Source of the DNA: Sinorhizobium meliloti
Lineage (GTDB): Bacteria > Pseudomonadota > Alphaproteobacteria > Rhizobiales > Rhizobiaceae
Direction of reading: 5' to 3'
Length of the DNA: 32,000 nucleotides
Assembly (NCBI RefSeq): GCF_017876815.1
Contig: NZ_JAGIOS010000001.1
Location: 2,400,001-2,432,000, forward strand
Shown: piece by piece, positions 13,496 through 18,950 of the stretch
Position numbering within the stretch: position 1 is the stretch's first letter
Layout of the letters: each line of letters begins with the position of its first letter
The notes under the pieces: model-generated
Databases searched by the model: none
The model's input: the letters and a program-made list of their open reading frames with translations, nothing else
What the model was told of the DNA's origin: nothing
Made by a program: the position numbers and the translations under genes

Positions 13496-14011
13496 TCAGG
13501 CCCTCCTTTCCGTATTTTCGGACAACATGGCTGCGAGCCTGAGCCGCGCCGTCGACAGTCTGCTCATGACCGTACCGACCGGGATGCCGAGGATCTCCGC
13601 CGTTTCCCGATAGCTGTGGCCTTCGACATTGACGAGGAGGAAGACGCTTGCCAGTCCCTCCGACATGGACAGGATCATCTTCTGCACCTGATTGGCATAG
13701 GCGGCCTTTTCGGCCGTTGCTTCGACGTGCGGTTCGTCCCGCTCGAAAACGTCGACCGCACCGGCGCTGCGCACCTTGCGCTTGCGGATTTCGTCCACCC
13801 AGAGATTGCGGGTCATCGCATAGACCCAGCTTTCCAGCCGGCCCTCGCCGTTCCAAAGGTGACTGCGCGCGATTGCCCGCTCGCAAACTTCCTGGACAAG
13901 ATCGTCGGCGTCATTGGCATTGCGGGCCAGCGTGATCGCGAAGCGGCGCAGTTTGGGCAGCAGGCTGACCAAATCCCGTCTGAAATCCTTCATTTCTGCC
14001 GCTGGGCGCAT
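13496..14011 (-). CDS. ECF (group IV sigma-70) RNA polymerase sigma factor
   Basis: Region 2 (DADDLVQEVCERAI, WVYAMTRNLWVDEIRKRK) and region 4 (SYRETAEILGIPVGTVMSRLSTARLRL). The start is uncertain: ATG 14011 (MRPAAEMKDF) or ATG 13993 (MKDF). The track start at 14143 is too far upstream. Confidence 0.9.
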   Translation of the reverse strand: MRPAAEMKDFRRDLVSLLPKLRRFAITLARNANDADDLVQEVCERAIARSHLWNGEGRLESWVYAMTRNLWVDEIRKRKVRSAGAVDVFERDEPHVEATAEKAAYANQVQKMILSMSEGLASVFLLVNVEGHSYRETAEILGIPVGTVMSRLSTARLRLAAMLSENTERRA

Positions 14012-14204
14012 TGCTCTTCCAGTGAAACGTGCCGGATCGCGCGTCCATTCGCCATCCGGACGCACCATCAATGATATGGAACATTTGGTCCTAAGTCTGC
14101 AAGGGAAGAGCCGGAACGGAAAGAGGTTTTTGCGCCCCGGCAACGGTTTTCCCCACGGCGCCGCGCGTCCTTGAATCGGCCGGGATCGAAAGGCTTCCGG
14201 CGCT

Positions 14205-15107
14205 TCAGAAATACGTCGTTTCGGCGAGCACCACGCCGGTCGCGTCCGGGTTGATCGCGTAGCGCTCCCGGGTCAACCGCCAGTCTCCGGGCTCGCCGTC
14301 GACGGAAAAGAGATTATAGGCGGCGACGGGCTTGCTGCCGCCGGGACCCTGCGAGGCGGATGCGATGCCGACGACCGGCACCGGCCCCGTATGCCCCTTG
14401 AGCCAGTGGAGCGTATTGAGATGCGTGTGGCCGTGCAGAACCAGCTCGGCCCCGCCCGCGGAGATGGTGGCAGCGAAACGGCGGATGCCGATCATGCGCT
14501 TGTGCATCGAGGTCGCGCCGCGGATCGGCGGGTGATGGATCATGACGATGCGGAACAATCCGGCTTCGCCGGCCTGGCGAAGGAGGTTGACCGTCGCGCG
14601 TGCCTGTCGCGGCCCGAAATAGCCGCTGGCGGCGAAAGGGGGAGTGGCCACAGCCGTCGAGCAGCCGATCAGCGCCACCTTGCCGCGCACCCGCATATAG
14701 GGAAAGCAGGCATGCTTCTTCATCCAGCCGCTGGGGCCGTCATCGCCACGCATGAAGGGATACCATGCATGCGTGATCTTCTCGTATGCGCCGGGCACAT
14801 AGGCGTCGTGGTTGCCCGGCACGACCGAGATTTCATTGGGGTCGCCCGCTTCCGCAAGCCATTCGGTAACCGCCTCGATCTCCAGGGAAGAGGCGAGATT
14901 GACGAGATCTCCGGTAATCGCCAGGTGATCCGGATTGCGCACCTCGATGTCCTTCATCAGGCAGTCGAGCGTCCCGGGAAAGAGGTGGCGCACCCTGTTC
15001 CTGTGCCAGTTGACGAATCCGGTGATCCGCTTGGAGGCGAGTTCGCGGAGGGAGAGATCGGGCAACGGCCCCAGGTGGACATCGGATATATGCGCAAGTT
15101 TGAACAT
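14205..15107 (-). CDS. Calcineurin-like metallophosphoesterase
   Basis: Ordered motifs ISDVHLG, ITGDLVN, GNHDAY, MIHHPP and HGHTH. Confidence 0.9.
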   Translation of the reverse strand: MFKLAHISDVHLGPLPDLSLRELASKRITGFVNWHRNRVRHLFPGTLDCLMKDIEVRNPDHLAITGDLVNLASSLEIEAVTEWLAEAGDPNEISVVPGNHDAYVPGAYEKITHAWYPFMRGDDGPSGWMKKHACFPYMRVRGKVALIGCSTAVATPPFAASGYFGPRQARATVNLLRQAGEAGLFRIVMIHHPPIRGATSMHKRMIGIRRFAATISAGGAELVLHGHTHLNTLHWLKGHTGPVPVVGIASASQGPGGSKPVAAYNLFSVDGEPGDWRLTRERYAINPDATGVVLAETTYF

Positions 15108-15189
15108 TGATCCCGTCTAGCGCATATTCCCGTGAAGGGGAATCAGTAATGGACTATTCCCGGACACCGCGAATGTGAGGAGAAGGCGT

Positions 15190-15681
15190 ATGGACGAGAG
15201 CCGCGGGCCGGAGATGCCCTCCTGGCGGCTCCGCTTTCTGACGCGGTTTGCCCATGTTTATTTCGCCCTGGCGCGCGGCATGACGCTCGGCGTGCGGGCT
15301 GCCTGTTTCGACGATGAGGGGCGGGTCTTTCTCGTAAGGCATTCCTATCTGCCGGGCTGGCATCTTCCCGGCGGCGGACTCGACCGCAACGAGACGGCGG
15401 TGGAGGGCCTTGCCCGCGAGCTGAGGGAGGAGGGCAACCTCGTGCTGACGACGGCACCGCTGCTCTTTCAGGTCTACTACAACCGGCGCACCAGCAAACG
15501 CGATCACGTCATCTTCTTCCGCTGCGATAATGTCCGCCAGGAGCGGCCGAAGCGTGCGGATCTCGAAATCGCCGCGGCGGGCTTCTTTCCGCTCGAGGAC
15601 CTTCCGGCGGACACGACCCCTGCGACCCGGCGCCGGCTGGCGGAGCTTGCAGGAGACGTAGTGCCGGACAGGTTCTGGTAA
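15190..15681 (+). CDS. NUDIX hydrolase
   Basis: Nudix box PGGGLDRNETAVEGLARELREEGNL. I prefer ATG 15190 (GAGGAG at 15177-15182) to the GTG at 15175. Confidence 0.88.
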   Translation: MDESRGPEMPSWRLRFLTRFAHVYFALARGMTLGVRAACFDDEGRVFLVRHSYLPGWHLPGGGLDRNETAVEGLARELREEGNLVLTTAPLLFQVYYNRRTSKRDHVIFFRCDNVRQERPKRADLEIAAAGFFPLEDLPADTTPATRRRLAELAGDVVPDRFW

Positions 15682-15805
15682 CGGCCGCATATCCCCTGAC
15701 GAGGAATGTCGCCGGCTTCAGCGCAAGCTTGAGCAGGCGGCGGGTGTGGAAACCGCCGGCTGTTGGAGTGACTTCCGGTTTGTAAATGGATTACCGCAGA
15801 TGCCA

Positions 15806-16714
15806 TCAGCGTTCGGCGTTTGGGAAGTCCGACCGAGCAGTGACCGTGATCTTCTCGTCGTGTGGCAATCTTTCGGGCAGGTCCGCGCGATCGGCCACGA
15901 CGATCCCGTGATCGGTCAGGAGACTGGCAAAGCGATCGTCCTGGCGGAGAACCCGGCCAGTGATGTCTTCGCCGGCGCGGGCAGTGCGGACATGATGGTG
16001 TAGAGGCTCTTCGCCGCTCTCCCGCAAGTCGTCGAATGCGGATCGGATGGCCTCACGGCGGCCCGGCTTCATCGCGTCCTCGATCGCGTGCTTCATCAGG
16101 GGACTGGACGGGTCGTTCGTGGTTTCGATCGACGCCTCGATCATGCGCGGCATGGTGATGAGGGAAAAATCGATCGCGTGCCCGTAGTGGCGGCCCAACT
16201 CGGAAATAAAAGCCTCTTGAGCACGGCCGTTGCCCTCTCTGAATGGATGCACGTAGTTCGGTTCCGAAAGGACCTTTGCGGCCCGCTCGGCAAATTGCTC
16301 CGGCGTTGCCTTGCTAAGGGCCGGCGGATCTGCGATCGGCCTCAGCGCCTCGTTCAGACCCATTTCTATGCGTGAGCCGGGCAGGAAGGATGTGCCGCCC
16401 TGGAAGAGTCCGCCGACAGGCTCGACCCTCTGGCCGTCGACAACGGGACTCTCGTTGCGCGTATGCCCGGCCCATTCGTAAACGTCCTGAAAAATGTACC
16501 TGTGAATCGCCTTCAGGTGGGCCGTGTCGAAATTGCCGCTCGGTCCACTTCCCTGGTTTATCTCGACCAGCCGGATGTTGGTCAGTGCATACTCGGCCGG
16601 TCGAAGTTCGGAATGTGCCGTCAGGTTCAGTTTGTTGCGCAAGACGCCCGTGCGATCTGGATCATCGGTAACGGCAGGGTAGGTGTAAGAGCCCTTCGGC
16701 TGTCCGCTTGCCAT
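15806..16714 (-). CDS. Fic-domain protein with non-canonical active-site motif (HPFREGNGRAQE)
   Basis: The N-terminal part is VbhT/Bep-like (VLRNKLNL, FDTAHLKAIHRYIFQDVYEWAGHTR). Fic loop HPFREGNGRAQE at 16214-16249. The C-terminal ~90 aa carries no motif I recognise. GAGGA ribosome-binding site just upstream. Confidence 0.9.
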   Translation of the reverse strand: MASGQPKGSYTYPAVTDDPDRTGVLRNKLNLTAHSELRPAEYALTNIRLVEINQGSGPSGNFDTAHLKAIHRYIFQDVYEWAGHTRNESPVVDGQRVEPVGGLFQGGTSFLPGSRIEMGLNEALRPIADPPALSKATPEQFAERAAKVLSEPNYVHPFREGNGRAQEAFISELGRHYGHAIDFSLITMPRMIEASIETTNDPSSPLMKHAIEDAMKPGRREAIRSAFDDLRESGEEPLHHHVRTARAGEDITGRVLRQDDRFASLLTDHGIVVADRADLPERLPHDEKITVTARSDFPNAER

Positions 16715-16725
16715 CGATTCCTCAT

Positions 16726-16754
16726 GAAAAAGCCGCCCGGGAATGCAGGCGGCT
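16726..16754 (-). terminator. Terminator-like hairpin between the small ORF and fic
   Basis: The minus strand reads AGCCGCC-tgcattcccg-GGCGGCT followed by TTTTT. It lies in the 62-nt spacer between the stop at 16777 and the fic ATG at 16714. Confidence 0.5.
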
Positions 16755-16776
16755 TGTACAACTCATCGATCGACGA

Positions 16777-16983
16777 TTAGGCGCGCTTGAAGCGCGTCAG
16801 CATCTCTTCGCGAAACTCTTCCGTGGTAATGTCGCCGGCGATAAAGCGGGCGTTGGCCGCCTCGAGCACCGGATCGTGAACATAACCCTGCCGGATATTG
16901 GCAGCCCGCGCCTGCTCGGTGGCCTTGCGGCGCTTCTCGATGGCTTCCGGAGAACGGTCCCGACGGCGGGAATGAACGTTCAT
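16777..16983 (-). CDS. VbhA-family antitoxin-like small protein with degenerate inhibitory motif
   Basis: MNVHSRRRDRSPEAIEKRRKATEQARAANIRQGYVHDPVLEAANARFIAGDITTEEFREEMLTRFKRA aligns by eye with VbhA (...RRRDARNALASQRLEGLEPDP...GELETSDV...). ATG 16983 has GGAG 8 nt upstream; the track start at 16989 is a TTG. Confidence 0.72.
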   Translation of the reverse strand: MNVHSRRRDRSPEAIEKRRKATEQARAANIRQGYVHDPVLEAANARFIAGDITTEEFREEMLTRFKRA

Positions 16984-17019
16984 CGGCAAATCTCCAGTTG
17001 CATGCTACCTTAACAGGGA

Positions 17020-17041
17020 AAATGCTGCAAATCCAGCATTT
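17020..17041. promoter_or_regulatory. Inverted repeat AAATGCTG-N6-CAGCATTT upstream of the small ORF / downstream of yqjG
   Basis: Perfect 8-bp arms at 17020-27 and 17034-41, ~37 nt upstream of ATG 16983. It could be an autoregulatory operator or a weak terminator for the upstream yqjG-like gene. The sequence alone does not distinguish these. Confidence 0.3.
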
Positions 17042-17148
17042 CGCCCCATTTTCCGATGTTTCGAAGGCGGGTTCGACCGTAACGAAACGGCGATGGAAGG
17101 CCGTGTCCGAATTCGGTGGGGAGGACGGACGCGTGCTGACCGCGCCGC

Positions 17149-18141
17149 CTACAGCCGGTCCCGCCCGTGCGGCGCTTCAAGGTCGAGCGCCGGCCCCACC
17201 GGCACGATGCCCGTGGGATTGATCGTCGTATGGCTGCGGTAATAATGCGCCTTGATGTGGTGCATATTCACCGTCTCGGCGACGCCCGGCACCTGGTAGA
17301 GCTCGCGCAGATAGCCGTATAGGTTCGGATAGTCCGCAATGCGGCGGATGTTGCATTTGAAATGGCCGACATAGACCGGATCGAAACGGACGAGAGTCGT
17401 GAACAGCCGCCAATCGGCTTCGGTCAGGCGGTCTCCCGTGAGATAGCGCTTGGACGCGAGGCGGTTCTCCAGTTCGTCCAGCATGGCGAAGAGGGCGGTG
17501 ACGCTCTCCTCATATGCCGCCTGGCTGGTTGCGAAGCCGGCCTTGTAGACCCCGTTGTTGACCGCGTCGTAGATGCGCGCGTTGAGCGCGTCGATTTCCG
17601 GCCGCAGTTCCTGCGGGCAGAAGTCTTCCGTCGAGCCTGTCAGACGATCGAAGGCCGAGTTGAACATGCGGATGATTTCGGCGGACTCGTTCGAGACGAT
17701 CGTGTTCTTCCGCTTGTCCCAGAGGACCGGCACCGTCACCCGGCCGGAATAGACCGGGTCGGCGCGCAGATAGACTTCCCAGAGCATGCGCGAGCCGAAG
17801 AGGTGATCGGCGGTGCCGCCGTTCTCGCCCTCACCGTCCTCTCCCTTGAATTCCCAGCCGTTGGCCAGCATCAGCGGGTCGACGACGGAAAGCGAGACGA
17901 GGTCTTCGAGCTTCTTGAGCTTGCGGAAGATCAGCGTGCGGTGCGCCCAGGGGCAGGCAAGGGACACATAGAGATGATAGCGGCCCGCTTCGGCCTCGAA
18001 GCCGCCTTCGCCGGAAGGGCCGGGCGATCCATCTGCCGTGATCCAGTTGCGGAACTGCGATTCGCTGCGCTTGAAGTGACCGTTCGTTGCACGCGTGTCG
18101 TACCAGACATCCTGCCAGACGCCATTCACCAGCCTACCCAT
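17149..18141 (-). CDS. yqjG: Glutathionyl-hydroquinone reductase (Xi-class GST, YqjG/ECM4 family)
   Basis: YHLYVSLACPWAHRT catalytic CPWA motif. Typical N-terminus MGRLVNGVW..FRNWIT. AAGGAG lies 7 nt upstream of the ATG. Confidence 0.92.
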   Translation of the reverse strand: MGRLVNGVWQDVWYDTRATNGHFKRSESQFRNWITADGSPGPSGEGGFEAEAGRYHLYVSLACPWAHRTLIFRKLKKLEDLVSLSVVDPLMLANGWEFKGEDGEGENGGTADHLFGSRMLWEVYLRADPVYSGRVTVPVLWDKRKNTIVSNESAEIIRMFNSAFDRLTGSTEDFCPQELRPEIDALNARIYDAVNNGVYKAGFATSQAAYEESVTALFAMLDELENRLASKRYLTGDRLTEADWRLFTTLVRFDPVYVGHFKCNIRRIADYPNLYGYLRELYQVPGVAETVNMHHIKAHYYRSHTTINPTGIVPVGPALDLEAPHGRDRL

Positions 18142-18398
18142 GGGCCAACTCCTTTCGATCGTTTGCTGACGCCATAATTAGTGCTGAGAACCGCGGCCGA
18201 TAGATGTGAAATTCCGAACAGTGCGTTTTACCCTTTGACTGGCGGCGTTTTTCTGCTATCGGCGAAAAGGTAGCTCTTTCATCTGGGAAACGATCACCAC
18301 CATGATCCTGTCGGGAAGCCTGCGACGACGCTGATGCTGCAAACGCCCATTCGGGGCGAGCCATCCTCCATGTCCGTTCGCATGCCGGTTCTCGACAC

Positions 18399-18950
18399 AT
18401 GAAAAAGCACGATCTCGTCTATCTGACCGAAGACGCATCCCACGACGCAGCCATCGAAATCATCAATGAAGAGGCCTTCGGGCCGGGTCGCTTCACCCGC
18501 GCCGCTGCGCGGATTCGCGAGCAGGGACCCCATGACCGGGCGCTCTCCTTCATCTGCGCCGATAATGGCGAAACGATCGCATCGGTCCGGATGACGCCGG
18601 TGACCGCCGGCTCGGTGAAAGGACATCTGCTCGGCCCACTTGCCGTCCGGCCCTCGCACAAGAACCAGGGCATCGGCCGGGAACTCGTCCGCATTGCAGT
18701 CGAAGCGGCGCGCCGGAAGGGCTCCGAAGCGGTTATCCTCGTCGGCGATCCGCCCTATTACCAGCCGCTCGGCTTCGAGAAGGTGCGCCATGGCGCGCTC
18801 CAATTCCCGGGTCCCGTCGATCCGGCGAGGGTTCTCGTCGTGCCGGTCGCGCTGGACGTTCACGCGCGGCTTGAAGGCATGATCGCTTGGCGGGATGACG
18901 GCGCCACCTGCCTCACCGCGCGCGCGGAGGCGCAAGGGGCGGCTGCCTGA
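18399..18950 (+). CDS. GNAT-family N-acetyltransferase (YhbS-like)
   Basis: Acetyl-CoA motif A in LAVRPSHKNQGIGRELVRIAVEAARRKG. N-terminal EIINEEAFGPGRF is typical of the YhbS-like subgroup. No clear Shine-Dalgarno sequence. Confidence 0.85.
   Translation: MKKHDLVYLTEDASHDAAIEIINEEAFGPGRFTRAAARIREQGPHDRALSFICADNGETIASVRMTPVTAGSVKGHLLGPLAVRPSHKNQGIGRELVRIAVEAARRKGSEAVILVGDPPYYQPLGFEKVRHGALQFPGPVDPARVLVVPVALDVHARLEGMIAWRDDGATCLTARAEAQGAAA

Follow-up and report, generated by a model that had tools for sequence, protein, structure and literature searches.

A natural glutamate-glutamine replacement of the inhibitory contact in a conserved class I-type Fic family, and its possible consequence, constitutive deAMPylation

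The window considered here, a 32,000-nucleotide stretch of Sinorhizobium meliloti DNA (contig NZ_JAGIOS010000001.1, positions 2,400,001 to 2,432,000), encodes a Fic protein, Q92N52, together with a small protein of the VbhA family. Alignments indicate that the salt bridge between R2, the Fic motif's second arginine, and the inhibitory glutamate of the partner is replaced in this pair by a glutamate in the Fic protein and a glutamine in the partner, and that the pair belongs to a distinct, conserved class I-type subfamily. By analogy with an engineered Fic protein, Q92N52 and its relatives may not AMPylate at all and may instead be constitutive deAMPylases with a non-inhibitory partner, a reading whose chances we regard as evenly balanced.

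The partner gene lies 63 bp upstream of the Fic gene on the same strand (Table 1). Its open reading frame extends mechanically from a TTG at 16989, but the ATG two codons downstream at 16983, which has GGAG 9 nt upstream, is the annotated and better supported start. The Fic protein falls in the Fic/Fido family (Pfam Fic PF02661, E 1.1e-11, 45.8 bits, cut-off 24), and the small protein matches Pfam VbhA PF18495 (E 2.2e-17, 63.2 bits, cut-off 25.9) and aligns to VbhA in 3SHG_B across residues 13-69. The profile searches proposed in an earlier prediction made from the translations are thus both significant and above the Pfam cut-offs. A separate small upstream partner is the class I Fic arrangement of the FicT/FicA and VbhT/VbhA type. 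Contigs with exactly this Fic sequence number 551, and 643 carry the exact partner, which the database annotates as "antitoxin VbhA family protein"; the rhizobial group has been named "FicT toxins" in the literature by homology only. Orthology to VbhT is ruled out by a score of 98.4 bits against the NCBIfam VbhT equivalog NF045983, for which the cut-off is 800.

Both sides of the inhibitory contact deviate from the canonical state. A phmmer search against PDB chains lays the Fic loop, HPFREGNGRAQE, column for column on the BepA loop, HPFREGNGRTQR, and HMMER alignments to BepA and VbhT agree that R2 has become Glu167, so that the protein departs from the canonical AMPylating signature HxFx(D/E)GNGRxxR. 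On the partner side, phmmer aligns AANIRQGYVHDP with VbhA ASQRLEGLEPDP, and "aanirqgyvhdp" with VbhA "asqrlegledp". The inhibitory Glu is thereby matched by Gln32 and the Ser/Thr by Ala28, Arg31 occupies position -1, and only the Gly is kept; ANIRQG does not conform to the class I inhibition motif (S/T)xxxE(G/N). The original prediction had read the final Arg-to-Glu change in the Fic loop and the loss of both Ser/Thr and Glu from the partner, with an alignment to VbhA made by eye, and all of this is reproduced by translation and phmmer. No Glu of the small open reading frame aligns at the inhibitory position in the phmmer alignment to VbhA. The stretch TEEFREE, a candidate source of such a residue, aligns to VbhA helix 3 and is ruled out.

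The remainder of the active site is conserved. Catalytic His156, Mg-binding Glu160, and the first arginine, R164, are intact in the window protein, and in an alignment of 60 clade sequences H156, F158, R159, G161, G163, and R164 are invariant and E160 is nearly so. Also invariant in this alignment are the adenosine-contacting residues F110, N153, and S195, which map to BepA F113, N156, and S198, contacts to the adenine and ribose of ATP (Schirmer 2021). In Fic proteins R2 binds the gamma-phosphate of ATP and is also the residue with which the inhibitory Glu pairs (PMC8401265), a contact documented for VbhT/VbhA, BepA/BiaA, and Fic-1/AntF. By alignment, this gamma-phosphate clamp alone is replaced in the nucleotide pocket, and by an acidic residue.

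The altered contact is not peculiar to S. meliloti. Our survey covered 80 genomic loci of Rhizobiales, Acetobacteraceae, and related groups, and an exhaustive search took in 1.84 billion protein representatives. The small gene lies upstream of Fic in 75 of the 80 related loci, and the states of the Fic R2 residue and the partner inhibitory residue could be scored in 71 pairs: 66 are (E,Q), three, in Gluconobacter, are (D,Q), one is (Q,E), and one is (Q,Q). The state (E,E) occurs in none of the 71. Among the best 120 clusters at 90% identity with a readable motif, R2 is mostly E with few D or Q; among representatives at 50% identity, E is found in all matches above ~50% identity, the nearest R-type relatives stand at 46-49% identity, and R prevails beyond them. 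Residue 167 is E in 95% of the clade versus R in 100% of 202 canonical relatives, and E167 is at least 90% conserved among the 60 clade members. The partner is constrained as well: ANIRQG is found in 54 of 66 homologs, R31, Q32, and G33 show no or almost no variation, and ARAANIRQGYxHDP is the most conserved stretch of the protein. Ratios of nonsynonymous to synonymous substitution (dN/dS) of 0.15-0.25 against family members point to purifying selection on both genes. The E/Q state is ancestral to a large alphaproteobacterial clade and has at least two origins. Because the state is ancestral and conserved, the motif changes do not reflect decay, so that the decaying-module alternative first offered is not supported as an account of them; a sporadic degenerate allele is likewise ruled out by the clade-wide conservation and the dN/dS values.

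A few loci depart from the common state. In a Notoacmeibacter sp. (L049) the polarity is reversed, with Fic HGFRDGNGRTNQ beside a partner that reads ANYREG, and in an alphaproteobacterial metagenome-assembled genome (L052) both sides carry amides, ...TQQ being paired with LNRHQG. The Gluconobacter loci L062, L063, and L068 carry the loop HPYREGNGRTQD, with Asp at R2 and Tyr for the motif Phe, and a Gln-type partner motif, AQRRQG. Two further positions distinguish the E-type clade: Tyr42, on the partner-binding helix alpha1, and Arg115, just after the flap, are present in 98% and 87% of its members, respectively, and are almost absent from the 202 canonical relatives. The comparisons assigned no clade-specific Arg to the gamma-phosphate site.

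The double change recurs in a second, distant lineage that is 30-40% identical to the window protein. Here P0286 (HPFREGNGRTQE), an unfused Fic protein, is paired with a partner reading SSARQG, and Zavarzinia proteins with a VbhA domain fused at the N-terminus combine (S/A)SRIQG with ...TQE. The nearest canonical relative of this lineage, P0338 (...AQR), has a partner with SSRLEG, and the outgroups L079 and L080 are canonical, with xxxEG in the partner and R2 kept. Since the same double change is seen both clade-wide and in the second lineage, R2 and the inhibitory position co-evolve, as is expected for contacting residues. The proposal that R-to-E and E-to-Q would co-occur, the two partners of one contact having changed together, is thus borne out: Glu or Asp stands with Gln in 69 of 71 loci, and the independent lineage adds convergent covariation. 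Scanning metagenomes for the sister clade with P0191, the nearest R-type relative, found nothing, and the outgroups L079 and L080 and the second lineage served for comparison instead. Single-chain VbhA-Fic fusions (P0319 and P0334-P0336 from Zavarzinia and relatives, and P0312) carry SSRIQG with HPFREGNGRTQE, again the E/Q state, and are in effect class I pairs turned class II-like.

What the exchange might do to catalysis is suggested by recent work on Pseudomonas Fic-1 and its antitoxin AntF (PMC13327609, 2026). Fic-1 R146, the R2 residue, is needed for AMPylation; R146E, but not R146A, deAMPylates AMP-GyrB without AntF; and H135 is needed for both AMPylation and deAMPylation (PMC13327609). 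The window protein has the same combination of an acidic residue at R2 and an intact catalytic His, in E167 and H156. We propose that, with R2 missing and a carboxylate in the gamma-phosphate pocket, ATP would not be used productively for AMPylation. The Fic protein would carry in cis the Glu that class I antitoxins lend in trans and would act as a constitutive deAMPylase, with His156 catalytic and Glu167 giving a negatively charged cleft like that of Fic-1 R146E. Because the carboxylate would now be in cis, the Glu-to-Gln change in the partner is the expected compensation: Gln32 would avoid Glu-Glu repulsion and could hydrogen-bond Glu167. The small protein would no longer be an AMPylation inhibitor and could be kept as a structural subunit or chaperone, and its conserved Arg31 may tune or mask Glu167. 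The original argument against a conventional ATP-using AMPylating toxin held off by a Glu plug gains support here, whereas its list of alternatives (another donor, another inhibition mode, or decay) omitted an antitoxin-independent deAMPylase with Glu at R2 of the kind described in PMC13327609. That study pointed to 95 or more natural R2-to-E proteins, one of them a protein from Gluconobacter cerinus that resembles BepA; the G. cerinus loci L063 and L065 of our survey are clade members, which we do not equate with that protein.

Several points weigh against a deAMPylase. The activity was shown for an engineered R2-to-E protein only (PMC13327609) and is predicted for the natural members, and our reading transfers a point-mutant result from Pseudomonas Fic-1 (Foldseek TM scores 0.52/0.84 to the FIC part) to a protein that is ~25% identical. 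Simulations cited in PMC13327609 suggest that in human FICD the corresponding Glu may have no direct part in catalysis. A constitutive eraser has no obvious need for a tightly conserved partner with an R-Q-G tip, and the conservation of this tip hints at a regulatory contact. No second, AMPylating "writer" Fic was found on the plasmids that carry homologs, tblastn giving one place per record. Finally, the window copy itself lacks the C-terminal tail and differs from its family at two conserved positions, K105Q in the flap (nt 16400-16402; Gln versus Lys in all 59 aligned homologs, GLSKGG becoming GLFQGG) and L152P just before the motif (nt 16259-16261; Pro versus Leu in 58 of 59, SELNYVH becoming SEPNYVH), and some S. 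meliloti strains carry frameshifted or shortened alleles of 185-307 residues (P0002, P0065, P0106, P0452, P0453, and P0459), which points either to the gene being lost at times in the species or to differences in annotation.

The conserved pocket also bears on whether the protein could still be a transferase with another donor or chemistry, in which Glu167 selects the donor (NAD, ADP, or a CDP-choline-like molecule) rather than promoting hydrolysis. Such a donor would be diphosphate-linked without a gamma-phosphate, or would have a neutral or cationic group beside the beta-phosphate. The adenosine pocket is invariant, as are the catalytic His, Mg-binding Glu, and first Arg, which implies that a nucleotide-containing ligand is still bound but points to no one donor. 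Fic proteins of known alternative chemistry (Doc, AnkX) alter further motif positions, which also counts against this explanation. Although non-canonical FIC motifs do go with phosphocholination and phosphorylation (PMC8401265), the sole experiment on an R2-to-E Fic protein gave deAMPylation (PMC13327609), and we consider a different donor unlikely.

The partner tip raises the possibility of a toxin-antitoxin system with a charge-swapped lock, in which Arg31 would form a salt bridge with Glu167 and mask the site and the free Fic protein, whatever its chemistry, would be active and possibly harmful. In canonical partners the Arg stands at -2 and position -1 is hydrophobic (RLEG, RIEG, RMEG), whereas Arg at -1 goes with Gln both in the window clade (IRQG, 66 of 71) and, independently, in the partner of P0286 (ARQG); both genes are also strongly conserved, with the operon order of antitoxin then toxin kept. 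However, the fused Zavarzinia proteins retain the RIQG register, so the Arg shift is not universal, and we doubt that such a lock operates. We regard it as very improbable that the partner completes the active site, with Arg31 standing in for R2, the complex alone AMPylating, and the small protein serving as an activator. Arg31 is nearly invariant and adjoins the residue that contacts the R2 position, but Glu167 would still occupy the gamma-phosphate pocket, the convergent lineage lacks the Arg register, and there is no precedent.

The deAMPylase model can be set against the Fic systems already described. Fic-1/AntF shares with the window pair a class I Fic protein with a small VbhA/FicA-type partner and, in R146E, a Glu at R2, a negative cleft, and antitoxin-independent deAMPylation. 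There, however, the Glu is engineered and AntF keeps S24xxxE28, whereas the Glu in the window protein is natural and ancient and faces a partner with Gln and with Ala at -4; the window protein also adds a Bep-type hairpin and an OB fold, and its activity is predicted from sequence. VbhT/VbhA of Bartonella schoenbuchensis (3SHG, 3ZC7) is alike in gene order, fold (Foldseek TMt 0.86), and VbhA Pfam partner, and lies beside a conjugative VirB-type type IV secretion system (T4SS) and relaxase, with a C-terminal secretion signal like that of the cognate TraA relaxase on pVbh. Unlike the window protein, VbhT is canonical at R147 and paired with VbhA E24, and it has been proven to be a toxin that AMPylates gyrase and topo IV; the window copy has neither a BID domain nor a tail. 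BepA and Bep1, with BiaA (5NH2, 2VZA, 7ZBR), are the best structural match (TM 0.84-0.88 over FIC plus OB) and share the Bep-type beta-hairpin, and Q92N52_RHIME was placed among the rhizobial FIC proteins closest to the Beps (Harms 2017), but sequence identity is ~27% and BepA is canonical at R2. In the non-canonical Beps described, the Glu replaces not R2 but the second Gly (G2), and ATP-binding residues that the window protein keeps are gone. In the class II proteins FICD/HYPE and Enterococcus faecalis Fic, a Glu in the gamma-phosphate region likewise switches AMPylation to deAMPylation (cited in PMC13327609), but it sits on an intramolecular inhibitory helix, R2 is kept, and both activities are possible. 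The window protein should be fixed in one state because R2 itself is Glu.

The usual reading of a Fic protein is that of an AMPylating toxin restrained by a Glu plug; here a large natural family has transferred that Glu to the enzyme and neutralised it in the partner, at least twice. Taken with the R146E experiment, the E/Q family offers a way to ask whether natural antitoxin-independent Fic deAMPylases exist, a question left open by PMC13327609. If the deAMPylase reading is true, the "rhizobial FicT toxins" closest to Bartonella effectors would be viewed differently, and so would many alphaproteobacterial plasmid genes annotated "Fic family protein / antitoxin VbhA family protein". A literature search returned no published mention of GNGRAQE, GNGRTQE, or related motif strings and no published Fic deAMPylase on a conjugative plasmid, and no description of a paired Glu-to-Gln partner change was found in the searchable literature. 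The R2-to-E signature was given a single sentence in 2026, and there seems to be no earlier description of the co-evolved partner, the convergence, or the T4SS setting.

An AlphaFold2 model built with the family alignment (mean pLDDT 91.7, pTM 0.89) places five beta strands at residues 242-292. Foldseek gives a probability of 1.00 to many Fic structures, and its top matches, BepA (5NH2_A, 2VZA) and Bep1 (7ZBR, 4NPS), span FIC and OB fold over ~292 columns with TM scores of 0.8-0.88, the best being the BepA FIC-OB structure 5NH2_A (0.84/0.88, 292 columns); the phmmer alignment to 4NPS reaches residue 283. The model thus identifies the C-terminal domain as the OB fold of FIC-OB(-BID) proteins. 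The ~90 C-terminal residues had originally been taken for a separate small domain that could not be named; the domain stands and now has a name, but its structured part is ~60 residues. Residues 90-99 form the Bep-type hairpin, a segment that the clade has and that is a gap in 61% of canonical relatives; Harms 2017 attributed this hairpin to Q92N52. The chain ends 7 residues past the OB fold. Fic is the sole Pfam domain in it, and a C-terminal BID domain or charged tail of the kind that serves as a T4SS signal is absent.

Table 1. Coordinates of the gene pair, its motifs and domains, the captured fragment, and the loci used for the tail comparison
Feature	Positions	Strand	Basis and remarks
Fic protein, 302 aa	15806-16714	-	Open reading frame; identical to UniRef Q92N52_RHIME; FIC + OB fold, without C-terminal secretion tail
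VbhA-family small protein, 68 aa, ATG start	16777-16983	-	Pfam PF18495; partner of the Fic protein
FIC signature loop H156-P-F-R-E-G-N-G-R164-A-Q-E167	16214-16249	-	Sequence reading; alignment to BepA HPFREGNGRTQR
Partner inhibitory-helix tip A28-N-I-R31-Q32-G33	16885-16902	-	HMMER alignment to VbhA SQRLEG
Predicted OB-fold domain, ~residues 240-295	15830-15997	-	AlphaFold2 strands; Foldseek match to BepA/Bep1
Plasmid-derived fragment carrying the pair	15825-17071	.	blastn, 86% identity to the DUF736-VbhA-Fic region of S. fredii psfSMH12b
Segment missing at the empty site in Sinorhizobium sp. K101	15681-17158	.	Replaces 116 bp between NUDIX and glutathione S-transferase genes
Capture junction	15806-15824	-	Last five codons P-N-A-E-R + stop non-plasmid, in place of a ~50-aa tail
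Tail comparison, first plasmid	L082 7176-8240 + 12750-15272		
Tail comparison, second plasmid	L085 13986-15167 + 16517-17653		
Tail comparison, third plasmid	L090 9191-11815 + L091 1341-2390		

Most homologs are longer than the window protein, at 349-358 residues, and end in a conserved tail, ...ELKAIEAQ..RSRERDDDDRGR. On plasmids the pair sits in a block of ParB-like, RepC, thermonuclease, DUF736, VbhA, Fic, and ArdC-like zincin genes, near MobC/TraA and a VirB-type T4SS; in Agrobacterium larrymoorei it directly follows virB2-11, the coupling protein, and an LPD7 protein, and a relaxase comes after it. On three conjugative plasmids, the Fic homolog ends in 10-25 residues that are similar to the extreme C-terminus of the co-resident TraA/relaxase: ...NDRDDRDR in Fic versus ...RDRDDHER in the relaxase, ...KEDRGRER versus ...SKDKGRER, and ...RSRERDDDDHGR versus ...RERDRDDRDR. 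None of the 47 other coding sequences on pSF83666d has such a C-terminal ending. Longer clade members carry a BID domain (PF17841, cut-off 29.5 bits), L030 (572 aa) with 36.2 bits and L054 (560 aa) with 28 bits. The tails and BID domains suggest, by parallel with VbhT, delivery through a T4SS. L030 and L054 are E-type with BID after FIC-OB, a full Bep-like architecture outside Bartonella. The host plasmids L083/L084 (pAtA47a_b) and L090 (pSF83666d) also encode several products of defence or addiction: AbiH-like, Shedu nuclease, RelE/MqsA, PemK/Phd, and abortive-infection proteins.

The family resides on conjugative plasmids as a probable T4SS substrate, and the chromosomal copy in S. meliloti has kept FIC and OB without the secretion tail. 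Judging from the conjugative T4SS link and the relaxase-like tails, the family may represent a new kind of protein that accompanies plasmid DNA during transfer. Tentatively, and with less confidence than we place in deAMPylation itself, it is possible that the plasmid proteins are constitutive deAMPylases injected by the T4SS, with the relaxase-like C-terminus or BID domain as signal and the partner as chaperone, and that they are encoded among establishment and anti-defence genes (ArdC-like zincin, ParB-like, DUF736, thermonuclease, LPD7) to reverse FicT AMPylation of gyrase/topo IV or of another target, the S. meliloti protein being a domesticated, tail-less antidote.

The origin of the S. 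meliloti copy can be traced in its surroundings. The flanks, 13906-15680 and 17159-18441, are ~97% identical to one contiguous stretch of the Sinorhizobium sp. K101 chromosome, and the NUDIX and glutathione S-transferase genes are adjacent in K101, Shinella, and R. leguminosarum. Homology to the plasmids stops after the codons ...S-D-F, where plasmid copies go on SRVRREQ...RSRERDDDDRGR; because it stops right there, the tail was lost at capture. The GC content at third codon positions is 0.72-0.74 in both genes versus 0.79-0.83 in neighbouring genes. By these comparisons the S. meliloti copy is a ~1.25-kb conjugative-plasmid fragment captured in the chromosome with its tail removed. The window holds no tRNA, and a promoter and terminator scan of 15600-17300 gave nothing meaningful.

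Such a history makes one ask whether the protein is a non-catalytic or decaying remnant, a dead plasmid-gene fragment kept by chance or as a binding protein. The tail-less capture, K105Q and L152P, and the shortened or frameshifted alleles would fit, as would the higher dN/dS inside the chromosomal lineage (0.25 and 0.45, from few substitutions), and in BepC a FIC domain that works through binding is already known. Against this stand the many contigs that carry the exact Fic and partner sequences, the intact catalytic residues, and the number of deviations at 82 highly conserved positions, which at 2 is below the family median of 3; nor can the E/Q state, ancestral and conserved, be put down to decay. 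We judge a remnant improbable. At the empty site of K101 (L086, 1777-1892), the 116-bp spacer holds a long imperfect palindrome, GCCGCCTGCTTGTCCC ... GGGACAAGCGGCTAGCG, which may be a rhizobial intergenic repeat and recombination target.

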